Assembly (NCBI GenBank): GCA_964353785.1
Contig: CAYGWK010000003.1
Location: forward strand, 17,303 to 81,302
Source of the DNA: an uncultured Gammaproteobacteria bacterium
GTDB taxonomy: Bacteria; Patescibacteriota; Microgenomatia; CAYGWK01
Direction of reading: 5' to 3'
Length of the DNA: 64,000 nt
Shown piece by piece: positions 5,154 to 57,137 of this stretch. Under the pieces are notes generated by a model. The model worked only from the letters and a program-made list of their open reading frames with translations. It did no database searches and was not told the DNA's origin. The position numbers and the translations under genes were made by a program. The number at the start of each line of letters is the position of its first letter. The stretch's first letter is position 1.

Positions 5154-7085
<1,932 letters not shown>

Positions 7086-7668: not shown

Positions 7669-10245
7669 ATGGATATTGGCAAGATTCAACCAGTTGGAAT
7701 AACCGAGGAGATGCAGAAGTCTTACCTCGACTATGCCATGTCAGTCATTGTCGCTCGGGCCTTGCCCGATGTTCGAGATGGCTTAAAACCAGTTCATCGC
7801 CGAATCCTTTTTGCCATGCATCAGATGAGTCTTACCCACCAAGCCCATTTTTCAAAGAGCGCCAAAGTTGTCGGTGAAGTCTTAGGAAAGTACCATCCCC
7901 ATGGAGATATGCCAGTTTATGAGGCTTTAGTCCGCTTGGCTCAAGATTTCTCGATGCGGTATCCGTTAGTAGAAGGTCAGGGAAATTTTGGTTCAGTCGA
8001 TGGCGACCCTCCGGCAGCCATGCGTTATACTGAAACCAGGCTAGCCCAAATTTCTCAAGAAATGCTTTCTGACTTGGAAAAAGAAACCGTCCCCCAACTG
8101 GCAAATTTTGACGCCACCTTAACTGAACCAGTTTTTCTTCCGGCAAAATTACCAAATCTGCTCCTTATGGGTTCAGATGGAATTGCGGTTGGGATGGCCA
8201 CCAAAATTCCTCCTCATAATCTCTCTGAGGTTGTTGACGCCCTAACTTTTATGATTGAAAAGGGTAGGGCTTCTAAAGGAGCGGGTACACCTTTGGGAGA
8301 AGAGGGTTTTCAAAAAATTAAACTTGATAGGGAACCTCAAGAGACTTCGGTTTTTGAAAGTGACGTCTCAATCCAAGATTTACTTAAATACCTTAAAGGT
8401 CCTGATTTCCCAACTGGTGGAGAAATCTTTGACCTGGAACAAATTACCGAAGTTTACGCCACCGGAAGAGGGAGAATCTTAATCAGAGGAAAGGCAGAAA
8501 TTGAAGAGACAAAGTCAGGCCGTTTCCAGGTCATAGTTTCTGAAATCCCATATCAAGTCAACAAAGCCGAATTGGTCAAAAGAATCGCCAGCATGGCTAA
8601 AGAAAAAAGACTTGAGGGAATATCTGATTTAAGAGACGAATCAGACAGACATGGAATAAGAGTCGTCTTAGAACTTAAAAGAGACGCCAAACCAAAGGCG
8701 GTTTTAAACAATCTTTACAAATTAACTAGCCTTCAGACAGTTTTCCCGGCTAACTTTGTCGCCTTGGTTGATGGCGTTCCCCAAACCCTAAATCTCAAAC
8801 AGATTCTTACTTTATACATCCGCCACCGTCAGGAGATAGTCACCAAGAAAAGTGTTTTTGAACTGAGCCAAGCCAAAGCCAAGGCTCATATTTTAGAAGG
8901 CTTAAAAATTGCCCTTGATAATTTAGATGATGTTATCTTAACTATTAAGCGCTCCGAGGATGCCGAAGAGGCAAAGAAAAATTTAATGAAAAAGTTTTCT
9001 TTAACTGAAATCCAGGCAACTGCTATTTTGGATATGCAACTTCGAAGATTAGCCCACTTGGAAAGACAAAAAATTGAAGATGAATACAAAATGACCATGG
9101 AGGAAATTTCTTATCTTGAGGATTTACTGGCTCATCCAGAAAAAATCTTAAATGTTATAAAAAAAGAACTCCTTTATCTTAAAGAAAAATATGCAGACGG
9201 CAGAAAAACTCGGGTCTATGCCCAAAAACTAGGCGAATTTTCCGAGGAAGATTTAATTCCTAAAGAAGAGACGATTGTTACCATTACTACTTCAGGTTAT
9301 ATAAAACGAGTGCCCAGGGGGACTTTTCGGGTTCAGCGCCGAGGCGGAAAGGGAGTAATTGGGATGACAACTAAGGAGGAAGACCAAATTGCCCAGATTT
9401 TGACCGCCTCAACCCATGACAACATTTTATTCTTCACCGATAAAGGTCGGGTCTTCCGGCTTCGGGTTTGGGACTTACCTGAAGGAAGCCGCCAGAGCAA
9501 AGGTCAGGCGATTATAAATCTGATAAATATTGAATCAGGAGAACAGATTCAGTCAATTTTGACCACCTCAGCCGTTGAAAAAGATAAACAAAATAAACAA
9601 AAATTTCTTCTTTTGGTCACCAAAAAGGGGACCGTTAAAAAAACTCGTCTTGAGGACTATGAAAATATCCGCTCCTCTGGCCTTATCACCATTAAGCTTC
9701 TTCAAGGAGACGCTCTTTGTTGGACCCATGTCACTCAAGGATCAGACCTAGTTTTACTTGTTTCTTATCAGGGGAAATCAATTAAATTTTCCGAAAAAGA
9801 TATAAGACCGACTGCCCGAGATACTATGGGAGTTAGGGGAATTCAACTTAAGAAAGAAGACTACGTCGTCGGGATGGAAATTTTTCCAGAAAGAATAGAA
9901 AAACCAGCCGATGGTCGGAAAAAAGTTTTTCGAAACATTTTGGTGGTAATGGAGAAGGGGATAGGAAAAAGAACCGATTTGTCAGAATTTCCTTTACAAA
10001 AGCGAGGAGGTATGGGAGTTAAGGTAGCGGAAATTACTCAAAAAACCGGTAAGGTTTCTTGCGCCAAAATGGTCAATCAAAAAGTTGACCAGGTAATTTT
10101 AACTTCAAAATTTGCCCAGGTGATAAAACTTCCTTTGAAAAATATTCCCAAACTTGGCCGGGCCACCCAAGGGGTAATTTTGATGAGATTTTCCGACCCA
10201 GCCGACTCAATCGCCGCCGTTACTTGTCTTGAAAAAGAAAAGTGA
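7669..10245 (+). CDS. gyrA: DNA gyrase subunit A
   Basis: 858 aa; [19 protein letters not shown] catalytic-Tyr region and a C-terminal beta-pinwheel domain. TGA stop, so standard stop codons are in use. Confidence 0.95.
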
Positions 10246-11747
10246 AATTCCTACTCCTTTTTTTAGTTTATTTTTTAACCAGATTTTTTGCTCTTTCTTC
10301 TTTACCAATCTTCAATGACGAGTCAATTTACCTTCATTGGGGTCAAATCATGACCAATGTTCCGGGTCAGGCTTTTTATTCACTTTTTGACGGTAAACCA
10401 CCGCTTGTTCTTTGGGTTTTTGGAACTATCCAAAAATTTCCAATTGATCCGCTAGTCGCTGGAAGATTAATCTCAATTATTTTTGGGACCTTAACCATCT
10501 TTGGAATTTTAAAAATTTGCCAGCTCCTTAAATTTTCTCAAAAGACCCAAATTATTGCCGGTCTTTTATATATTTTAAGCCCCTTGACTTTATTTTTTGA
10601 TCGCCTAGCAATTTTAGATAGTCCAATTTCCACCATTTTTATTTGGATAGTCTATCTCTCTTTAAAAATTTCCCAATCCAAAATCATTAATCATAAGCAA
10701 AGCTTGTTGCTACGCAATAAATCATCAATCCTGCTTGGCTTGGTCCAGGCCGCTGGTCTTTGGATTAAAGGCACTTGCCGCATTTTTCTCTTTCTTCCAT
10801 TTATAATTCCAGTTTTAACTTTACTTGCCGACAAAAATAAAAAGGGGGCGAGTAGGGAAGCGGTATCTTTTTTTATCTCTTTCGCCTTAGCTCAAATTCT
10901 TTTTTTCCCAATCAGACTTAATTCTCTTTTCCCAATTTTCCAGAAAAGAGAAGCGGATTTTCTCCTACCTTTATCAGGGATATTTAGCCCAGTGGTCTGG
11001 TCTTCTCATCTCTTACTCTTAATTCTTACTTTGACTGTTTTTATCACCCCTTTGGTTTTAATTTTTGCTGTTTTTGGTTTTTATAAACTTTTTAAAACAG
11101 ATAAGAAAACGGCTCTGGTTTTATTATCGTTTTCAGTAATTCCTCTTGTAATTGAAATTTCAACCGCCCGCTTTTTTCTCTCTCGCTATTTTCTCTTTAC
11201 CATCTTGCCAATTTTTATTTTCTGCGCTTACGGACTTGAGCAAATTAAAAAATGGAAAAAAATCGCTGCCATTTTTACTTTCATTCTGCCAGTAACTCTT
11301 ACTCTATCTCTTACTCTCACTCCCTTCTCAACCCTTAAAACTTTGTCCCAGAATAAACATAGTTTGTTGCTTCGCAATAAAATTCTCGCCCAAGATTTAG
11401 AACAATATTTTACTGGCTGGACTTCAGGTTATGGGGTTAAGGAAGCAGCAGATTTTCTAGTCCAGGAGTCCCAAAAAGGCCCAATAATTGTTCTTCTTCG
11501 GGCCGACAGCGGTAACCCGGAAGATGGAATGTTTGTTTTCTTGGGAAAAAATAAAAATATAATTTTTGCTCAAGCGACTCAAAAACCAAAACCAGAAGAA
11601 CTTAAGGCTTTATCAAAATTTCCAATTTTCTTTGTCAGTCGCGGTCCGCAGTTTCTTGGGATGGAGAATTCGCTTTCCGAATTAGCAATATTTAAGAAGC
11701 CTCTCGGAGAAGAGTTTGTGGGAATCTATAAAATCAATTTTAAATAG
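10242..11747 (+). CDS. Polytopic membrane glycosyltransferase-like protein (GT39/ArnT/PMT-like fold), carrying two in-frame 27-bp element insertions
   Basis: GTG start overlapping the gyrA stop. 501 aa, >10 TM helices, N-terminus [19 protein letters not shown] resembles dolichyl-/undecaprenyl-phosphate sugar transferases. Contains KQSLLLRNK and KHSLLLRNK encoded by the dispersed 27-bp element. Confidence 0.55.
10695..10721 (+). repeat. 27-bp dispersed element, in-frame (KQSLLLRNK) in GT39-like gene
   Basis: AAGCAAAGCTTGTTGCTACGCAATAAA; in frame relative to the ORF start at 10242. Confidence 0.85.
11355..11381 (+). repeat. 27-bp dispersed element, degenerate copy, in-frame (KHSLLLRNK) in the same GT39-like gene
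   Basis: AAACATAGTTTGTTGCTTCGCAATAAA. Confidence 0.75.
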
Positions 11748-12484: not shown

Positions 12485-12544
12485 TTTATCATAAATGATT
12501 AAATCTCTCCAGTTTTATTTTCTTACAAACTATTGATAAGTTTG

Positions 12545-12570
12545 TATATCATATATTAATATATGATATA
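12545..12570. promoter_or_regulatory. Perfect 26-bp AT-rich palindrome TATATCATATATTAATATATGATATA in the divergent promoter region of the TrpR-like gene (candidate operator)
   Basis: Exact dyad symmetry. Overlaps the annotated ATG of the HTH gene. Nearly identical copies occur at 12963..12984 and 55989..56008. Confidence 0.45.
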
Positions 12571-12959
12571 TGACACATGTTTCAAGAAAGAAACTACCAG
12601 ATAAAGTTCTTCGACAGATTTTAGAATCTTTTTTGTTTGTTTTAACCAGCACCAAGAAAAAGGAGGAAATGTCTAAATTCCTGGATGCCTTCTTATCGAA
12701 TACCGAAAAAATAATGTTAGCCAAAAGACTAGCGATCGTTTTTCTTTTATCCGAAGCGGTGGAGGAGACCAAAATTTCAGAAACTCTGTTGGTAACTCAG
12801 TCGACTGTCTCAAGAATAAAACTCTGGTATGAAACGAAGGGTTCAGGTTACAAAATTGCCATTACCAAACTTAAAAAACAAAAACTCCTTGGAGAACTAA
12901 AATTACTCGCTTTGGAAGTCGCTCGCCGTGGTATCCGAGCCGCCGGTGGTCGTCCCTAA
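12570..12959 (+). CDS. TrpR/YerC-YecD-like helix-turn-helix DNA-binding protein
   Basis: 129 aa (alternative start MSKFLD at 12672 would give ~95 aa). HTH segment ISETLLVTQSTVSRIK resembles TrpR-like YerC proteins. Flanked by the 21-bp direct repeat / palindrome GTATATCATATATTAATATAT. Confidence 0.5.
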   Translation: MTHVSRKKLPDKVLRQILESFLFVLTSTKKKEEMSKFLDAFLSNTEKIMLAKRLAIVFLLSEAVEETKISETLLVTQSTVSRIKLWYETKGSGYKIAITKLKKQKLLGELKLLALEVARRGIRAAGGRP

Positions 12960-12962
12960 CTC

Positions 12963-12984
12963 GTATATCATATATTAATATATC
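12963..12984. promoter_or_regulatory. Second copy of the 21-bp core GTATATCATATATTAATATAT (imperfect palindrome) immediately downstream of the TrpR-like gene
   Basis: 21/21 direct repeat of 12544..12564. The right half-site is degenerate (…ATATCGTATA). Confidence 0.4.
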
Positions 12985-13007
12985 GTATAAGTTATCTTCC
13001 CTAAAAA

Positions 13008-18596: not shown

Positions 18597-18680
18597 AAAT
18601 TAGTTATATTCTAACAGAATTTCCACTAAAAATCTGCGTTTGGAGACGAGGGCAGGTATAATTTTTGCGCTAGTCAAGAT

Positions 18681-18871
18681 GGCGAGGTAACAATTTTTGC
18701 GTTTTTTAATCTTTTAATAAGGGGGCGAGGGTAGAATTTTTGTGAAGGTTTCATCTGGCAAGCCCGAGGACAACGGAACACAACTCGACTTCCAGACTTC
18801 AGAATCCGAGGGCGGTCCGCCGATTCGGCGGAGGCCATGTCGAAACCGAACAACAAATTCCTACCCGAGCC
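18681..18871 (-). ncRNA. Paralog 1 of an unidentified ~160-190 nt structured RNA-like element (has a duplicated 5' arm)
   Basis: Shares conserved blocks with 36349..36505 and 56012..56176 (AACAATTTTTGCG, GGCAAGCC, CGGAACACAACT, AAATTC). Terminal helix GGCGAGGGTAG / CTACCCGAGCC and an internal hairpin CCGCCGA-TT-CGGCGG at the position where the paralogs have different but still paired sequences. Starts 4 nt after the LCP-gene stop. Strand is inferred from the flanking genes. Confidence 0.5.
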
Positions 18872-23447: not shown

Positions 23448-23909
23448 ATGCTTGAACTGCCGCATACAATCGTTGGGGCAACTATCGCCACCAAGATTGG
23501 CAACCCCTACCTCGCCCTCCCATTTGCTTTAATCTCAAATCTCCTCATTGACCTTCTCCCTCACTGGAATCCTCACATTTACACGGAAATGAATCACGAT
23601 GGCAAAGTTTCCCCAAAATCAAAAAGAATTGTTATCGTCGACTCTAGTCTTGCTCTAATAACAGGCTTGCTTTTAGCCTTAAGATTTTATCCAAATTTAG
23701 GAAAAGTGGCAATAATTTTAGCAGGCTGTTTCCTAGCAGTTCTCTTTGATGTTTTAGAAGCCCCCTACTTTTTCCTGAAGTCAAAAAATAAATATATTTT
23801 AAAGTTAATTTCTATTCAGCGGAGATTCCAGTGGAACGTCTCTCCAATCCCCGGAATTCTCTCCCAAATTATTCTCATCGGAGTCTGCTTCTTTTTGCTT
23901 TTTACTTAA
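23448..23909 (+). CDS. Hypothetical small membrane protein
   Basis: 153 aa, four hydrophobic helices, good promoter immediately upstream. Confidence 0.45.
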   Translation: MLELPHTIVGATIATKIGNPYLALPFALISNLLIDLLPHWNPHIYTEMNHDGKVSPKSKRIVIVDSSLALITGLLLALRFYPNLGKVAIILAGCFLAVLFDVLEAPYFFLKSKNKYILKLISIQRRFQWNVSPIPGILSQIILIGVCFFLLFT

Positions 23910-24483
23910 CCCTCTCCACATATTCTCCAGTTCTTGTATCCACCAAAATTCTCTCTCCTTGATTTATAAAAAGAGGAATTTTAATTTTTAAGCCATTATC
24001 CAAAACCGCTGGTTTAAAAATATTCGTAGCACTATCCCCTTTTACCCCTGGTCCAGTTTCTTTAACCTCAAATTCCATTTTGGGCGGAAGCTCGATCGAT
24101 AAAGGTTTTTCAGACCAGAACAAAACATCAACCATCGCCTGTTCACGCAAAAATGGTGCTTGGTCAGAGATTAAATCTCTGGGAATTTCAAGTTGTTCAA
24201 AAGTTTTCGGGTCCATAAAGTAAAAATTATCTTTGCAATAAGCAGAGCTTGTTGCTCCGCAATAAAGATATTGAAGTTTGCGTTTGACAGTAGAAATCTC
24301 AGAAACCTTGGCTCCGGAAATAAAGGTTTTTTCAAGAACCGCCCCAGTTTTTAAATTTCGCACCTTGACTTTTATATTGGCCGTCCCCCGCCCCATTTTT
24401 AAATGCTCATATTTCAAAACCACAAAAGGCTCGCCATTCTCTTCAAAAGTTCTTCCGCTTCTTAGTTCCGTTACAGAAATCAT
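23902..24483 (-). CDS. efp: Translation elongation factor P, with an in-frame insertion derived from the 27-bp element
   Basis: Start taken at MISVTELRSGRTF (ATG 24483), directly after the tRNA-Leu. KMGRGTANIKVKVRNLKTG and the C-terminal OB domains are present. YCGATSSAYCK is encoded by the antisense copy of the element at 24240..24266. Confidence 0.85.
   Translation of the reverse strand: MISVTELRSGRTFEENGEPFVVLKYEHLKMGRGTANIKVKVRNLKTGAVLEKTFISGAKVSEISTVKRKLQYLYCGATSSAYCKDNFYFMDPKTFEQLEIPRDLISDQAPFLREQAMVDVLFWSEKPLSIELPPKMEFEVKETGPGVKGDSATNIFKPAVLDNGLKIKIPLFINQGERILVDTRTGEYVERVK
24240..24266 (+). repeat. 27-bp dispersed element, antisense and in-frame (YCGATSSAYCK) inside efp
   Basis: AAGCAGAGCTTGTTGCTCCGCAATAAA. 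Confidence 0.85.
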
Positions 24484-24486
24484 CGG

Positions 24487-24573
24487 TGCCGAGGAGAGGA
24501 GTCGAACCTCCACGGTCCTTTAGGGACCACAAGTTTTTGAGACTTGCCTGTCTACCAGTTCCAGCACCTCGGC
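24487..24573 (-). tRNA. tRNA-Leu (anticodon CAA), type II with long variable arm
   Basis: Hand-folded: acceptor GCCGAGG/CCTCGGC, anticodon stem CAAGT/ACTTG with loop CTCAAAA (CAA), variable stem GGTCC/GGACC, T-arm GAGG-TTCGACT-CCTC, discriminator A. No encoded CCA. Confidence 0.8.
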
Positions 24574-27851: not shown

Positions 27852-29165
27852 ATGGCAAAACTTAAATTTCAACCAGTTAAGGGAACGAGGGATTTTTATC
27901 CGGAAGAGATGGCTTTCCGGAACTTCCTATTTGGAAAAATGAGAGAAGCTTCCAAAAAATTTGGCTACCAAGAATACGAAGGTCCGATTCTTGAACCCCT
28001 AGAACTCTATGCGGCCAAATCAGGCGAGGACCTGGTTAAAAAACAAACTTTTGTTTTAACAGACCGAGGAGGGAGAAAACTGGCTTTAAGACCAGAGATG
28101 ACTCCAACTTTGGCGCGGATGGTTGGACAAAGGGAAGCAGAACTTCCAAAACCAATCCGCTGGTTTTCCATTGGTCCCAGGTTTCGCTACGAACAACCCC
28201 AAAAAGGAAGATTAAGAGAATTTTATCAATGGGATATTGATATTTTGGGCTCAGAAAGCCCAGAGGCAGATGCGGAGATTATTGCTATCGCGGCCGAATT
28301 CTTAAAAAGTATCGGCCTAACCCCCAAAGAAGTAAAAATTAAAGTTAATGACCGCTCTTTGATGGAACAAAAATTATCTTTGATTGAGATTCCTAAAACA
28401 AAGATTCAAGAAGTTTTCAAAGCAGTGGACAAGAAGGAAAAAATTGCCGAGGAAGAATGGGATAAATGGCTTAAAGAGATAGGATTAACCAGTCTTCAGG
28501 TTAAGGATCTTAAGGGAATCTTAAAAGACCGCGATTTCAGTCGAGAGTCAGAAAACCTAACCAGAATCTTTTCTACTCTTTCTGATTTGGGAGTTTCGGA
28601 TTTTGTCGAATTTGATCCAAATGTTGTTCGCGGGCTTGATTATTATACCGGAATAGTTTTTGAGGCAAGAGACGCCAAGGGTAAGTTCAGAGCGATTCTT
28701 GGTGGAGGAAGATATGATAATTTAGTTGAGGTTGTTGGCGGTCCAAAAATTGCCGGGACTGGATTCGCCGCTGGAGATGTCGTTATCGAGGAGGTTTTAA
28801 AAGAATATAAGCAAAGCTTGTTGCTTCGCAATAAAAAAACTCCCAAGATTTCTCCTGGCAATACCAGAGTATTAGTTACAGTTTTTGACGAATCAACCTT
28901 CCGCGATTCACTCAAAGTTACTTCATTACTGCGCAGTAATAGAGTAAATACAGAAATATATATTAATCCGGAAAAACTTGACAAACAATTAAAATACGCT
29001 AGCCAGAAAGAGATCCCCTTCGTGGTGATTATTGGCCCAGAGGAAGAAAAATCTGGAACAGTAACGATTAAAAATATGGAAAAAGGCTCGCAAGAAACTA
29101 TACCCCAGGAAAAACTTTCAGACTACTTTTCCACCAAAGGCGGATCCGCCTCTGGCGGAAAATAA
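27852..29165 (+). CDS. hisS: Histidine--tRNA ligase, with in-frame KQSLLLRNK insertion
   Basis: 437 aa; class II motifs (…RYEQPQKGRLREFYQWDIDILG…, GGGRYDNL); C-terminal anticodon-binding domain. The 27-bp element at 28809..28835 lies between the catalytic and anticodon-binding domains. Confidence 0.9.
   Translation: MAKLKFQPVKGTRDFYPEEMAFRNFLFGKMREASKKFGYQEYEGPILEPLELYAAKSGEDLVKKQTFVLTDRGGRKLALRPEMTPTLARMVGQREAELPKPIRWFSIGPRFRYEQPQKGRLREFYQWDIDILGSESPEADAEIIAIAAEFLKSIGLTPKEVKIKVNDRSLMEQKLSLIEIPKTKIQEVFKAVDKKEKIAEEEWDKWLKEIGLTSLQVKDLKGILKDRDFSRESENLTRIFSTLSDLGVSDFVEFDPNVVRGLDYYTGIVFEARDAKGKFRAILGGGRYDNLVEVVGGPKIAGTGFAAGDVVIEEVLKEYKQSLLLRNKKTPKISPGNTRVLVTVFDESTFRDSLKVTSLLRSNRVNTEIYINPEKLDKQLKYASQKEIPFVVIIGPEEEKSGTVTIKNMEKGSQETIPQEKLSDYFSTKGGSASGGK
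28809..28835 (+). repeat. 27-bp dispersed element, in-frame (KQSLLLRNK) inside hisS
   Basis: AAGCAAAGCTTGTTGCTTCGCAATAAA. Confidence 0.85.
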
Positions 29166-33019: not shown

Positions 33020-34261
33020 TTATTTTATTTTAAGCAATTCTATTGCTTTTTCAAGTTGGGGGTCACGCGTTTGATCTTTTTCATCCATTTCAACCTCAAA
33101 ATCCGGTTTTATTCCTTCCTTGTCAATATTTTTTCCTGAAGGCAGAAGCCATTTGGCAACCGTTATATGAAGTCCAGAACCGCCAAGAAGTTCTTCTGCC
33201 TCCTGAATTGTTCCCTTACCAAATGATTTCTCCCCCACCACCTTTGCTCTTCCTCGCTCTTGAAGAGCCCCGGCCACAATTTCCGAAGCCGAGGCCGAAC
33301 CTTGATTAATTAAAACCACCAAAGGAACGTCTAAAAGTCTCCCTTTCCGGTTTACTGAAAAAGTTTCCACTCCTCCGTCTCGGCTTTTTTCCTGCTTAAC
33401 CACCACCCCATCTTTTAAGAATTCTGAAGTAATAAACACCGCCCCATCTAAAAATCCTCCCGGATTATTTCTTAAATCAAGAATAACTCCGTTTACTTCA
33501 GGGTGATGGTCAATGATTGATGAAACAGCTTCCTCCCACTCCTCATAAGTTCTCTCCCCAAAGCGAAGAAGTTTTAAATGGGCTGCCTCATCTTTAAAAG
33601 AAACCTCAACGCTTTTAACAACAATCGTTTGGCGGATAAGCTCCACTTCAAATTCGCCTTTATCTTCGCGAAAAATTGTCAAGGTCACCTTTGACCCTTG
33701 GGGTCCGCGAATTATTGTTACCGCCTCAGGAAGTGACATTTCGGCTGTCTCTCTGTCAATTTTTTTTGCTTCATCTTTAATCCGCAAAATCAAATCTCCG
33801 GCTTTTACTCCTGCCTTTTCCGCCGGTGTTCCGGATAAAGGAGCAATAACGGCGACTTTTGAATCCTTGTATCCAAGCTGAATCCCTACCCCTTCAAAAG
33901 CACCAGATAAATCTTCTTTTGATTGTTTTTGCTCTTGGGGTGGTAAAAAAACTGTATATGGATCGCCAAGTGAGGAAACCATTCCCGAAATGGCTCCATA
34001 AACCATTTTTTGATAATCAATTTTTGATTTGTCAAGATAAGATTGCTCAAGTTTATCCCAAACATCCCAAAACAAAGAAAAGGAAACGTCCTCTTTTCCT
34101 AAAGGCACTTTTCTCTCTAAAGTTACCTTGGGTTTATAATCTAAAAAAGTGATTTCTAATTTTCTTTGACCAAGAAAGTATCCTGTCCCGAAAGAGGCAA
34201 TTAAAATTGCAAAAATTAAAATTACTTTTCTTGCTTGGGAAAGCGTCATTCTAATCTTCAT
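33020..34261 (-). CDS. C-terminal processing peptidase (S41 family, CtpA-like) with PDZ domain
   Basis: 413 aa; S41 catalytic region LINQGSASASEIVAGALQ with the Ser-Lys dyad context; PDZ domain. Confidence 0.85.
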   Translation of the reverse strand: MKIRMTLSQARKVILIFAILIASFGTGYFLGQRKLEITFLDYKPKVTLERKVPLGKEDVSFSLFWDVWDKLEQSYLDKSKIDYQKMVYGAISGMVSSLGDPYTVFLPPQEQKQSKEDLSGAFEGVGIQLGYKDSKVAVIAPLSGTPAEKAGVKAGDLILRIKDEAKKIDRETAEMSLPEAVTIIRGPQGSKVTLTIFREDKGEFEVELIRQTIVVKSVEVSFKDEAAHLKLLRFGERTYEEWEEAVSSIIDHHPEVNGVILDLRNNPGGFLDGAVFITSEFLKDGVVVKQEKSRDGGVETFSVNRKGRLLDVPLVVLINQGSASASEIVAGALQERGRAKVVGEKSFGKGTIQEAEELLGGSGLHITVAKWLLPSGKNIDKEGIKPDFEVEMDEKDQTRDPQLEKAIELLKIK

Positions 34262-35073
34262 TGTAGGTTTTTAGGAAAAAACAAAAATTTTTCCTCTCCA
34301 GAAAGCAAAGCTTCTTTACCTTTTCTTTTTTCCAATTCTTGCCAAATTTCTTTTGGGACAGATCCGTCGTTGCCTCCTAGAGAAACTATTGTCAATTCAT
34401 TTGCCTCCGCTTCAGGGGAAATTGAACCTCCAACAAGTCCGGCTATCCCCAAAGCTTCGGCCTTATGGCAAATCCCAAGAGAAATTTTACCACCGGCAAC
34501 CAAAATTTTCCCTTTATCTTCTGGTCTAAGTTGAGAAAGTTTGACCTCTTCGTCTCTTTCTCCCAAAACATCAAGAATTCCAAAAACTTTTCCTCCTCTT
34601 CCCCAACCTCCTTCAATTTTTTCTCCCTCAAATTCCAAAACCAAAAGATTTCCTTTTTTTTCTTTTATTGCGGAGCAACAAACTTTGTTTATTTTACCGG
34701 AGAAAGGACTTAAGAGTTCTTTTTTCTCGCTTTTTGTTTTTATCTTTAAAATCCCTTTATCAGAAAGGCCGACAAACACTCCGGCAACTGGACTTTTAAA
34801 AATCGTTCCTTTCCCAAAAAGTCCTTTTTTAATGGCCACAATCTGGCCCTTTTCAATTTTTGCCCCCGGAGAAATCGAAAGAATCTTACTTACTTTTTTT
34901 GGAGAAATCGAAAAAAAGCCCGCCAAATCAAATTCTTCAAATTCTTCCACCTCTTCGGTTGCCAAAACTTTTCCTTTCAAAACCTCATCTCCCTCACTTA
35001 CCAAAATTTTTGCCTCTTTTGGAAGAGGAAAAGAAAAGAGAGAGCTAGAGATTTCAAAGGCAGGGTTTGTCAT
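34258..35073 (-). CDS. Hypothetical protein (271 aa) with in-frame 27-bp element insertion (NKVCCSAIK frame)
   Basis: Translationally coupled between the S41 peptidase gene and rpsR. Element at 34664..34690 read in the +1 frame relative to the KQSLLLRNK copies. Confidence 0.5.
   Translation of the reverse strand: MTNPAFEISSSLFSFPLPKEAKILVSEGDEVLKGKVLATEEVEEFEEFDLAGFFSISPKKVSKILSISPGAKIEKGQIVAIKKGLFGKGTIFKSPVAGVFVGLSDKGILKIKTKSEKKELLSPFSGKINKVCCSAIKEKKGNLLVLEFEGEKIEGGWGRGGKVFGILDVLGERDEEVKLSQLRPEDKGKILVAGGKISLGICHKAEALGIAGLVGGSISPEAEANELTIVSLGGNDGSVPKEIWQELEKRKGKEALLSGEEKFLFFPKNLQ
34664..34690 (-). repeat. 27-bp dispersed element (sense on the minus strand), +1-frame reading (NKVCCSAIK) inside the 34258..35073 gene
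   Basis: The minus-strand sequence is AAACAAAGTTTGTTGCTCCGCAATAAA. Confidence 0.8.
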
Positions 35074-35892: not shown

Positions 35893-36189
35893 TTAATCAA
35901 CTCTGACCAACAAATATCTTAAAACTTTTTCATTTAGACGCAACTTTTTTCCAATTTCTACCGGAACTTCTTGGGAAAGTTCTAAATTGAAAAGAAAATA
36001 AATTCCTTCTTTAGACTTTTTACCCGCTTTTCTAATCGGGTAAGCCAGTTCCTTTTTTCCCCATTCATCTACCTTCTCAACCTTTCCTTTCGCCTTTTCA
36101 ATCTCCCCTTTTATCTCTTCAACCAATTTCTTCCTTTCATCTTCTTTTAAATCCGGGTCTAAGACTACTGCCATTTCATATTTTCGCAT
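35893..36189 (-). CDS. rpsF: 30S ribosomal protein S6
   Basis: MRKYEMAVVLDPDL...; classic rpsF-ssb-rpsR order. Confidence 0.9.
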   Translation of the reverse strand: MRKYEMAVVLDPDLKEDERKKLVEEIKGEIEKAKGKVEKVDEWGKKELAYPIRKAGKKSKEGIYFLFNLELSQEVPVEIGKKLRLNEKVLRYLLVRVD

Positions 36190-36226
36190 AAAGGAAAGTA
36201 TAACAAATAATTAGAAATTAGTAAAT

Positions 36227-36322
36227 AAGCAGAGCTTGTTGCTTTGCAATAAGCAGAGCTTGTTGCTTTGCAATAAGCAGAGCTTGTTGCTTTGCAATAA
36301 GCAGAGCTTGTTGCTTTGCAAT
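36227..36322. repeat. Perfect 4x tandem array of the 24-nt core (AAGCAGAGCTTGTTGCTTTGCAAT) of the dispersed 27-bp element, in the rpsF 5' leader
   Basis: Four identical head-to-tail copies and no spacers. Each unit can form a GCAGAGC/GCTTTGC 7-bp hairpin with one G.T pair. Followed by a short GTAATTAG-type repeat. Confidence 0.9.
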
Positions 36323-36348
36323 AGTAATTAGTAATTAGGTAGTAATTA

Positions 36349-36505
36349 GGCGGAGAGGTAACAATTTTTGCGCAGGATTTAGGTGGCAAGCCGCGACCCC
36401 ATCGGAACACAACTTGAGTTTCAAGCTGCCCAGTCGCGAGCTGGTCCCGCGTCAAACGCGGGAGCCATCTTTAAATCCAAGCAACAAATTCGTTACCGAA
36501 CCGCC
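36349..36505 (-). ncRNA. Paralog 2 of the unidentified structured RNA-like element
   Basis: Terminal helix GGCGG-AGA-GGTAAC-AATTT / AAATT-C-GTTACC-GAA-CCGCC; internal hairpin CCCGCG-TCAAA-CGCGGG. Starts 12 nt after the ychF stop and sits with the tandem array in the rpsF leader. Confidence 0.5.
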
Positions 36506-55432: not shown

Positions 55433-55993
55433 TTAAAAGCAAGACAAAATTTTCTCGATTTCTTCTTTGAATTTTTCCACAAATTTTTCATCTTTGACTT
55501 GAGAAAGATTTATTCTGACATTTTCCAGGGCTCCATAAATTGCCGCGGTTGCCAGTTCAATTCCGCATCTGGCGTCAGAAACCGCGTTTTGATTTCCTTT
55601 GGCAGCCACAAATGAAGCCAGGCGCAAAACTTCAAGCGATTTTTTGGCCGTTTCCAGCGGAACTTCGGCGGCATTCTTTAGGGCTTCCTGTATCTTCTTG
55701 TTCCTTGTCTCTTGTTGCTCTTCCTCTTCTTTTGGTAATCGATAAGCCTTAACCACTTCATTGTATGCTTGACAATCTTTATCTGAAAGTTCTAATAATT
55801 CACTTCTTAATTTGTCTGCTTTTTGAGTGATTTTTGAAACCTCTAGGTTTTCTTTTGTTAATCTGGCAACTTTTCCAACCAAGGCCGCTCCCATTGCTCC
55901 CGCCAACGCCGCACTTGCTCCTCCGCCAGGTGTCGGCGCCTTTGAAGAAACTTCTTCTAAAAATTTCTTTATTTTTTGCTCTCGAATTATCAT
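55433..55993 (-). CDS. Formiminotetrahydrofolate cyclodeaminase-like protein (FtcD C-terminal domain homolog)
   Basis: Start taken at MIIREQKIKK (ATG 55993). The longer track ORF (to 56155) reads through the RNA-like element. TPGGGASAALAGAMGAAL motif. Confidence 0.7.
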   Translation of the reverse strand: MIIREQKIKKFLEEVSSKAPTPGGGASAALAGAMGAALVGKVARLTKENLEVSKITQKADKLRSELLELSDKDCQAYNEVVKAYRLPKEEEEQQETRNKKIQEALKNAAEVPLETAKKSLEVLRLASFVAAKGNQNAVSDARCGIELATAAIYGALENVRINLSQVKDEKFVEKFKEEIEKILSCF

Positions 55994-56008
55994 ATATTGA
56001 TATATGAT
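55989..56008. promoter_or_regulatory. AT-rich palindrome ATCATATATTGATATATGAT overlapping the cyclodeaminase start codon
   Basis: Differs at one position from the perfect palindrome found upstream of the TrpR-like gene at 12548..12567. Confidence 0.4.
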
Positions 56009-56011
56009 GTC

Positions 56012-56176
56012 AGTAATGGATGGCGAGGGAACAATTTTTGCGCAGGATTTATGTGGCAAGCCGCGACCCAACCGGAACACAACTTGAGTTTCAAATAACC
56101 TAGTCGCGAGCTGGTCCCGCACCAATTTTGGTGCGGGAGCCATCTCTAAATCCAAGCAATAAATTCGTTCCCGAGC
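56012..56176 (-). ncRNA. Paralog 3 of the unidentified structured RNA-like element
   Basis: Terminal helix GGC-GAG-GGAAC-AATTT / AAATT-C-GTTCC-CGA-GCC (compensatory versus paralog 2). Internal hairpin CCCGCACCAA-TT-TTGGTGCGGG is longer than but nested on that of paralog 2. Starts 7 nt after the formiminotransferase stop. Confidence 0.5.
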
Positions 56177-56183
56177 CAGCCTC

Positions 56184-57137
56184 CTAAAGTCTGTTTTCTA
56201 AGACCTGCTCGTTTTTAAAGTCAATTAATTGTAATTCTTCCAAATTTATTCCTCCCAAGGCTTTTTTTGGAACCATGCCATAGATTTCTGAACCCAAAAC
56301 CTTAACTCCTCTTTTCCCCGCTTCCTCTTTAATTTTTCGGAAAACTTTGTCCATATTTGTCTTCTCAAAATCACATAAATTCATGGAAACTTGAACATAG
56401 CCTTTATTGCGGAGCAACAAGCTCTGCTTATCTTTAATTTCAAAACCCAAAGCCTTAATCGCCGGAAAACCGCCATCTTTTTCCCGAACAATTTTGGCTA
56501 AATCTTTGGCAATTTGAACATCTTTGGTATCTAAATTAACATTGTAGGCAATTAAAAATTTCCTCGCCCCCACCACCATTGCTCCGGCTGTGGGATGCAT
56601 TTTTTGCGGACCAAAATCAGGTTTTCTTTCTGGATTTGTCTGGATTTCAGATTTTAGCCCCTCGTACTCGCCTCGTCTGACATCTGCCAAATTAACTCTA
56701 TCAGGTCTGGTGGCGGCCGCCTCATATAGGAAAACTGGAATTTTCAATTCCTGGCCAATTTTTTTTCCTAATCTTTTTGCCAATGCAACACACTCTTCCA
56801 TGGAAACTCCAGAAACTGGAATAAAGGGAACAACATCAGTGGCCCCAATCCGGGGATGCTCACCTTGATGTTTTTCCATATCAATCAAGCGAGTAGCCAC
56901 TTTTATCATTTCCCAAACTGCCTGGAAAACCATCTCTGGTTCACCAACAATTGTGGTTAGCATCCGGTTATGGTCAGGGTCTGACTCAATATCCAAAATC
57001 TTAACCCGCCTAAATATTCCGCCAGAATTTTTGGCGGGTGAACTTTTCCCAGTCCGGGCGGCATCAACAATGGCTTTAATTTTTTCTTTATCTCGTCCCT
57101 CGGAAAAATTTGGAACACACTCAATAATTTTTTCCAT
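56184..57137 (-). CDS. Glutamate formimidoyltransferase (FtcD N-terminal domain homolog), with in-frame KQSLLLRNK insertion
   Basis: 317 aa; ECVPNFSEGRD N-terminus. 27-bp element at 56402..56428. Confidence 0.8.
   Translation of the reverse strand: MEKIIECVPNFSEGRDKEKIKAIVDAARTGKSSPAKNSGGIFRRVKILDIESDPDHNRMLTTIVGEPEMVFQAVWEMIKVATRLIDMEKHQGEHPRIGATDVVPFIPVSGVSMEECVALAKRLGKKIGQELKIPVFLYEAAATRPDRVNLADVRRGEYEGLKSEIQTNPERKPDFGPQKMHPTAGAMVVGARKFLIAYNVNLDTKDVQIAKDLAKIVREKDGGFPAIKALGFEIKDKQSLLLRNKGYVQVSMNLCDFEKTNMDKVFRKIKEEAGKRGVKVLGSEIYGMVPKKALGGINLEELQLIDFKNEQVLENRL
56402..56428 (-). repeat. 27-bp dispersed element (sense on the minus strand), in-frame (KQSLLLRNK) inside the formiminotransferase gene
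   Basis: The minus-strand sequence is AAGCAGAGCTTGTTGCTCCGCAATAAA. Confidence 0.85.

Follow-up and report, generated by a model that had tools for sequence, protein, structure and literature searches.

Why does a 24-nt sequence stand four times head to tail upstream of rpsF, and why does the same sequence recur, one copy at a time and in frame, within genes such as those of EF-P and HisRS? In the window, the whole 64,000-nt stretch of DNA that was analysed, the unit AAGCARAGCTTGTTGCTNCGCAAT was observed at seven loci: six single copies in five genes and one array of four units, a density of about 1 locus per 9 kb. A 27-mer consensus matches the window ten times with 0–3 mismatches each (plus strand, 10695, 11355, 24240 and 28809; minus strand, 34664 and 56403; four matches in 36227–36325), whereas dinucleotide-preserving shuffles give a chance expectation of 0.00. 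These matches confirm the original prediction of a ~27-bp element at seven loci in 64 kb. Its coordinates hold for all copies but the one in the formiminotransferase gene, which lies at 56403 rather than 56402, and its five genic copies become six copies in five genes. No further or decayed copy was found in the window when the consensus was relaxed to 8 mismatches, and a covariance model scored at every window position added none. True copies score 46–51 bits in this model and the next unrelated hit less than 12 bits; the lone intermediate score, 14 bits, is a partial match to the last unit of the array.

The GT39-like membrane protein gene (10242–11747, plus strand) carries two copies, a unit at 10695..10718 (plus strand), read in sense frame 0 as KQSLLLRN, and an A/T-subtype unit (AAACATAGTTTG...) at 11355..11378 (plus strand), read in the same frame as KHSLLLRN. 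KQSLLLRN is also encoded in sense frame 0 by the copies in the HisRS gene (27852–29165, plus strand; unit 28809..28832, plus strand) and in the formiminotransferase gene (56184–57137, minus strand; unit 56406..56429, minus strand). The EF-P gene (23902–24483, minus strand) contains a unit on the opposite strand (24240..24263, plus strand), which is read antisense as CGATSSAY, and a hypothetical gene (34258–35073, minus strand) reads an A/T-subtype unit (34667..34690, minus strand) in sense frame 1 as NKVCCSAI. These translations agree with the peptides named beforehand (KQSLLLRNK four times, INKVCCSAIK and antisense YCGATSSAY). The array occupies 36227..36322 on the plus strand between genes. 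By strand, five loci are plus and two are minus, all on one replichore. Pfam confirms the predicted identities of HisRS, formiminotransferase (FTCD), EF-P and rpsF. The GT39-like ORF of 501 aa has no Pfam hit of its own, and its predicted identity stands through homologs only, which carry PF13231/PF02366 (PMT/PMT_2) domains and are named glycosyltransferase family 39. A sequencing or assembly artefact is ruled out, as the repeat recurs at target-consistent sites in independent JGI, ENA, Logan and NCBI assemblies, and a CRISPR is ruled out by the absence of spacers. Rfam at the gathering threshold gave no known RNA family in the whole window, and its E-value mode returned only sub-threshold miRNA/snoRNA noise over the array.

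Judged by sequence alignment, each of the six genic copies is a lineage-specific insertion of exactly 8 aa (24 nt). Close orthologs of EF-P, HisRS, the GT39-like protein and the hypothetical protein, 77–90% identical, have no insert. The reading frame is preserved as predicted, with exact 8-codon gaps in the protein and DNA alignments of orthologs, and the net gain is 8 aa rather than the 9 aa first proposed, because the ninth residue is the host's own target codon AAA. Both copies in the GT39-like protein correspond to exact 8-aa gaps in homologs of 77–82% identity, and the second (11355..11378) to a clean 24-nt gap against the DNA of ortholog L147. NKVCCSAI is missing as an exact 8-aa gap from 9 of 9 aligned homologs of the hypothetical protein. 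The formiminotransferase comparison, which consists of two solved mammalian structures only, likewise has an 8-residue gap at the site (PDB homolog 1qd1). The prediction that orthologs of efp and hisS would mark the insertion as lineage-specific was borne out, since the segments are missing from close relatives. In HisRS, the insert falls in the linker that joins the catalytic domain to the anticodon-binding domain, and an 86%-identical Shapirobacteria ortholog (L146) is without KQSLLLRN. Around a clean 24-nt gap, the DNA of the two agrees at 100% of 76 nt (58 nt upstream, 18 nt downstream), which argues for a very recent gain or loss. As a separate observation, the C-terminus of the window HisRS (29100–29165) bears about 9 extra residues (…STKGGSASGGK) that are not in the closest orthologs.

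The EF-P site is polymorphic among relatives. Orthologs that are 86–90% identical read QYLY|KDEENF or QYLY|HDKDNF with no insert, the window EF-P reads QYLY-CGATSSAY-C-KDNF, and a 91%-identical ortholog contains two units, CEASSSAY-CKATSSAY. The empty site has the DNA sequence CTTTAT|AAAGAT in orthologs P0003 and P0004, and the 2-unit ortholog P0002 exceeds it by exactly 48 nt. The window allele corresponds to one unit plus a TGC remnant, with GCAAT at 24235–24239 left over from a second unit; loss of 27 nt from a 2-unit allele would explain this arrangement. The QYLY site is occupied in four orthologs altogether (62–91% identity), and the insert at this site in L145 was confirmed as the same DNA element. 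When mapped on structure, as the original prediction had proposed, the EF-P insert is placed by an AlphaFold (AF2) model of the window protein in a 10-residue loop (76–85) between two beta strands, and the insert loop is modelled less confidently than its surroundings. Hits on the same proteins recur elsewhere: KQSLLLRN follows AIDK in the HisRS of other lineages (P0129/P0130), and the EF-P ortholog P0043 has an antisense frame-0 reading, IAKHQALL, in another loop.

Further features were observed in and around EF-P. A tRNA-Leu(CAA) gene (24485–24573) lies one base upstream of the true EF-P start, which is assigned to 24483 (MISVTELR) because the longest mechanical ORF (23902–24513) runs into the tRNA. 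A second EF-P loop, after LFW, contains other short in-frame inserts (SFAGAQDK, SFTGAQDK, PFDSTGSK and PFDSFGSTQDKSAQGK). The orthologs concerned are P0006, P0038, P0051, P0058 and P0094, and also L145 (1017–1625), and P0035 and P0055 have additional inserts at the QYLY site. A second in-frame family with a 24-nt unit was considered for the SFTGAQDK insert of some orthologs, but its DNA has no other copy among the loci examined. These EF-P inserts may be signs of additional insertion families in Microgenomates.

Each copy has AT in front of it, closes with AAT and has AA behind it, so that a filled site reads ATAA-20 nt-ATAA. Empty sites have a single ATAA, and filling adds a net 24 nt. The predicted target-site preference is therefore real: ATAA is present at both ends of every window copy and at 96–99% of 113 unique sites among the matches listed, a figure scored from the left-flank AT and unbiased because this AT is outside the search pattern. 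Since the repeat is constant, duplication of the target and an ATAA carried by an element that lands beside another ATAA look alike. Among the six frames of the unit, the single stop triplet is the TAA of the ATAA repeat. An ATAA in the stop frame cannot exist in an intact gene, and the unit is 24 nt long; stop-free in-frame insertion is thus automatic. The earlier proposal that five open frames of six explain why insertions are tolerated is correct about the five frames, and the openness is partly a by-product of the ATAA target.

Among the matches listed, 88 of the 113 sites (78%) are in ORFs of at least 120 aa, and all five stop-free frames are used. Sense copies in ORFs occupy frame 0 at 43 sites, frame 1 at 11 sites and the frame containing TAA at 0 sites; antisense copies occupy their three frames at 13, 11 and 10 sites. 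Many sense copies lie two to five codons past the start codon, before a hydrophobic segment, as in MRN-(KQSLLLRN)x5. The repeat could be kept for its encoded peptide, KQSLLLRN, or as a palindromic protein-binding or regulatory site, for example upstream of rpsF. Frame 0 is over-represented among the sense copies (43/54, or 80%, versus 59–65% expected; p 0.001–0.02), the variable positions 3, 6, 9 and 18 are synonymous in this frame, and the array upstream of rpsF keeps its position in a relative with 67% DNA identity, which are features that a maintained peptide or site would share. Against such maintenance, which we consider improbable, the copies use five frames and both orientations and occupy loops, linkers and N-termini of unrelated proteins, close orthologs function without the insert, and the compensatory changes at 14:22 and 16:20 are non-synonymous.

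The pairing pattern of the copies supports, at the level of sequence, a unit in which two mini-hairpins, AAGC-ANA-GCTT and (G)TTGC-TNC-GCAA(T), stand side by side and account for its whole length. The pair 3:9 is G-C in 124 copies and A-T in 59, with 5 mixed cases (Fisher p about 1e-42), a covariation that could partly reflect two old subfamilies and involves, with positions 15 and 21, synonymous third positions of the commonest frame. Compensatory or wobble changes at 14:22, 15:21 and 16:20 were observed in copies free of search-pattern constraint; the copies at large were collected with a fixed pattern, which inflates the conservation of most positions. On the top strand, 97.6% of cells are paired when G-U is counted, with double changes at 4 pairs, and the observed twin-hairpin covariation was reached by 0 of 500 shuffles. 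The twin hairpins covary on the bottom strand as well, where 85.3% of cells are paired. The central nucleotide of each triloop (position 6 or 18) is variable, and the second loop of the bottom strand, G-N-A, is closed by C-G in 87% of copies. A G-N-A loop closed in this way is a motif of very stable DNA mini-hairpins. The 7-bp hairpin proposed originally (GCAGAGC...GCTCCGC) is indeed the predicted minimum-energy fold, but it has no support from covariation on either strand: across 52 distinct copies, its pairing is no better than that of column shuffles. The related proposal that the genic copies are older and decaying is not upheld, as their differences sit in loops or are compensatory and two window copies (24238–24267 and 56402–56431) are identical at 30 of 30 nt.

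The array was predicted to be a perfect fourfold head-to-tail repeat of the 24-nt core at 36227..36322, and it is exactly that; Tandem Repeats Finder reports 36224–36323 with period 24, 4.2 copies and 100% matches. It is located between rpsF (35893–36189, minus strand) and a 155-nt structured repeat followed by ychF, at 35–134 nt upstream of the rpsF start codon. The array abuts the -35-like hexamer of a putative rpsF promoter that lies immediately downstream on the minus strand, outside the element (36197..36225; -35 TTTACT and extended -10 TGnTATACT), and both hexamers are conserved at the orthologous locus L064. From its position directly upstream of this conserved -35/-10-like pair, the array is probably upstream of the rpsF promoter rather than in the rpsF leader, to which it had been assigned. 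L064, which is 67% identical in DNA, contains an array at the orthologous site, with 2 units of unlike subtype as opposed to the four identical units of the window. This difference is consistent with an element that regenerates its own target and with later resizing of arrays by slippage. Clusters elsewhere are also direct head-to-tail arrays. Among the matches listed, 18 distinct tandem arrays were counted, 8 of which mix the G/C and A/T subtypes, suggesting repeated insertion rather than duplication.

Could the repeat have spread with no dedicated machinery, by slippage, template switching at hairpins and gene conversion between copies? The identity of the four window units, the window EF-P allele as a 27-nt deletion product and a (GCAAATAA)n run adjoining the copy in L009 are what such processes would leave. 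Slippage can resize arrays but not place new copies at over 100 unlinked ATAA sites, and it gives no account of arrays in which subtypes distinguished by a compensated pair occur together; we assign little probability to this explanation. The L009 run (about 1565–1640) is a microsatellite derived from a two-unit junction and present on both sides of a single 24-nt copy, which suggests slippage at unit junctions.

Other repeats surround the array. Short tandem repeats (TAATTAG and TAGTAATTAGG) are present on both of its sides (36322–36350 and 36205–36226), and 'tagaaattag'-like flanks also adjoin arrays in L063 and L084. The window also contains another repeat family, of about 155 nt, at 36349–36502, 56019–56177 and 18678–18871, with further copies in L064 (1800–1940) and L009 (about 6330–6480); all copies are intergenic and in the same orientation. 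One of them directly abuts the 24-nt array, and the position is the same at the orthologous L064 locus. The ends of this repeat pair in a long closing stem (RNAalifold, 36 pairs, 7 with compensatory changes). Rfam gave no match, and the repeat may be either a structured RNA or an element of the MITE type. Finally, an AT-rich perfect palindrome of 27–29 nt (GTATATCATATATTAATATATGATATAC) is found at 12544–12573, 12961–12989 and 55985–56011. The first two copies flank a small Trp-repressor-like HTH gene (12570–12959) and the third adjoins a 155-nt repeat. The palindrome could be an operator, a terminator or the ends of a mini-cassette.

Beyond the window, the unit is abundant, as the original prediction required of a genome-wide search. 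An exact-pattern scan of one genome per species, a set that leaves out the window's own genome, identified seven carriers, which comprise Patescibacteria, Woesebacteria and Shapirobacteria MAGs and two MAGs labelled 'Gammaproteobacteria'. The unit is also present in at least 120 metagenome contigs. IMG/VR, searched for a phage or plasmid vehicle, gave no match to it. The hosts are Microgenomates, in agreement with the predicted CPR-like genome, and the HisRS closest to that of the window is from a Shapirobacteria MAG. Spread to Gammaproteobacteria, suggested by the labels of the two MAGs (CAZLKE and CAYIUX), was considered and, for CAZLKE, set aside, its label having been found wrong. A 507-aa protein of L002 (CAZLKE010000011.1) is identical to a protein of Candidatus Daviesbacteria GW2011_GWA2_38_24, which identifies this 'uncultured Gammaproteobacteria bacterium' as a CPR genome. 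The loci from the two MAGs are L002, and L001, L010, L011, L015, L016 and L018.

A conserved sequence of about 24 nt that is common to related species and frequent in genes in several frames recalls the DNA uptake or recombination signals of Neisseria (DUS) and Haemophilus (USS), whose copies would build up through homologous replacement and biased uptake instead of transposition. CPR bacteria are thought to depend on DNA uptake, which would favour such a signal. DUS/USS copies form in situ through base substitutions and are recognised in the duplex, and they occur about once per kb. The copies described here are clean 24-nt insertions flanked by ATAA rather than products of point mutation, and they conserve complementarity through pairing-preserving covariation, not base identity. 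Their density is low, at about 1 locus per 9 kb, and head-to-tail arrays of mixed subtype exist. We regard an uptake signal as very improbable.

These observations support the core of the original prediction, that a short structured repeat inserts in frame into conserved genes of a CPR bacterium: the segments are missing from close relatives, and the unit is found in other genomes. The reading that we favour, and judge somewhat more probable than not, is a non-autonomous mobile element family of Microgenomates that integrates at ATAA via a folded single-stranded intermediate, with an enzyme acting in trans. The 24-nt single strand would fold into two back-to-back mini-hairpins and integrate at ATAA. 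As ATAA would be regenerated at both ends, new copies would land beside old ones and build head-to-tail arrays, which slippage would then homogenise or resize. Selection would retain only those copies that the host can tolerate, for instance in loops, in linkers between domains and at N-termini that precede membrane helices. We infer the single-stranded hairpin intermediate and catalysis in trans by an enzyme encoded elsewhere. Our best guess for this enzyme is a single-strand transposase of the HUH/Y1 type (IS200/IS605- or RAYT-like), since this family recognises small hairpins and a fixed target of 4–5 nt. No Y1 transposase was found by Pfam among 20 small ORFs of the window. With three Y1 transposases of solved structure as queries, tblastn and HMM searches of 0.97 Mb around 146 loci were likewise negative, in a sample where a single-copy gene is easily missed. 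No REPtron-like gene flanked by pairs of the element was found; the genes between paired copies are glycosyltransferases according to Pfam.

One feature counts against a simple DNA transposition model. Sense copies in ORFs exceed the availability of ATAA (61% observed versus 37% expected, p about 4e-6), which this model does not predict. The excess would be accommodated by an RNA intermediate, with reverse transcription of a transcript of the unit or an insertion coupled to transcription, as proposed for the cyanobacterial SDRs. The orientation of the window copies, which follows the strand of the host gene and not the replichore, and the better pairing of the top strand when G-U is counted (97.6% versus 85.3%) point in the same direction. 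Nevertheless, 39% of the genic copies are antisense, and the G-N-A triloop closed by C-G on the bottom strand belongs to a stable DNA mini-hairpin type. We consider an RNA route unlikely and retain the single-stranded DNA element as the preferred reading.

The unit constitutes a new family, which is distinctive among very small structured repeats in being mainly genic, in frame by construction and hosted by a phylum whose mobile DNA is little known. Literature searches returned no earlier description of this sequence, of its peptide or of such repeat elements in CPR bacteria, so that the family is probably undescribed for this lineage, as had been supposed. The tiny genomes of CPR/Patescibacteria are considered poor in mobile elements. 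In the present case, a 24-nt repeat has repeatedly entered essential genes (EF-P and HisRS) without inactivating them. A more far-reaching reading, possible but on balance doubtful, would make it one of the smallest mobile elements known and the first to be described in CPR bacteria, its length and sequence shaped for harmless colonisation of coding sequence. The mechanism would then lie outside REP/RAYT, MITE and IS, possibly coupled to transcription in view of the sense bias, and the element would continually supply the essential proteins of reduced genomes with 8-aa insertions in loops and at N-termini. The family accounts for odd 8-residue inserts in CPR proteins that would otherwise be mistaken for lineage-specific adaptation or alignment noise. 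It also serves as a warning to expect parasitic peptide segments when genes are called and structures predicted in Microgenomates genomes. The unit is usable as a marker for strain-level typing and recent activity, and it provides a sequence-defined system for asking how ultra-small elements move, a question that dates from the SDRs.

How does this family compare with known systems? The palindromic elements (RPEs) of Rickettsia are roughly 100–150 bp long and belong to alphaproteobacteria (Rickettsiales). Their insertion in frame into protein genes (Ogata et al. 2000) is described as summarised in PMC3733652 and PMC3184786. Like the RPEs, the 24-nt unit inserts in frame into conserved, essential genes of a reduced genome and is translated as an extra peptide. 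It differs in length (an RPE is about five times longer), in its ATAA target and in its Microgenomates hosts, and there is no sequence similarity. The parallel drawn in the original prediction thus extends to the insertion behaviour and not to sequence or size. REPs are imperfect palindromes of 21–65 bp with a GTAG or CGTC tag, which are G+C-rich, mostly extragenic with some inside genes, often in inverted pairs and linked to RAYTs (PMC3116915, PMC3733652, PMC3184786). The unit shares with REPs and REPINs a short imperfect palindrome, a conserved tetranucleotide at one end and presumed single-stranded hairpins. Unlike REPs, it is flanked by ATAA, contains neither GTAG nor CGTC, is AT-rich and mostly genic (88/113) and is arranged in direct tandem repeats; neither the window nor the 0.97 Mb around 146 loci yielded a RAYT.

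The ends of IS200/IS605 elements (IS608 TnpA, PDB 2a6m/2vju) resemble the unit in their small one-strand hairpins, their fixed tetra- or pentanucleotide target and their precise insertion and excision. The trait of a fixed adjacent target of 4–5 nt is represented here by ATAA at 96–99% of sites. IS200/IS605 elements differ in being at least several hundred bp long, in having two different ends and in encoding TnpA, of which no homolog was found in 0.97 Mb around 146 loci. MITEs are IS-derived elements of 70–300 bp with terminal inverted repeats of 15–30 bp. The unit does not belong to this class: it is 24 nt long and has two internal palindromes, and its ends (AAGC... and ...GCAAT) are not mutual inverted repeats. 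By this comparison, the closest systems in kind appear to be the 21–27-nt SDRs of Nostocales. SDR1–8 are said to have been described by Elhai et al. in 2008 as small dispersed repeats (21–27 nt) of heterocyst-forming cyanobacteria, in a paper (Genome Res 18:1484) to which PMC3116915 and PMC4390886 refer. They reportedly form hairpins with compensatory changes, insert precisely at a fixed short target, next to or within their own copies, and are confined to one clade, mostly in intergenic repeats, HIP1 sites and mini-transposons. Their movement is said to have been ascribed to an RNA or transcription-coupled route, and to our knowledge no mobilising enzyme has been identified for them. Homology to SDR1–8 is unlikely, as the host phylum differs. 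The likeness is one of form: both are dispersed units of about this size, with hairpins maintained by compensatory changes and a fixed insertion site, and the 24-nt unit is set apart by residing mainly inside protein genes, in frame.
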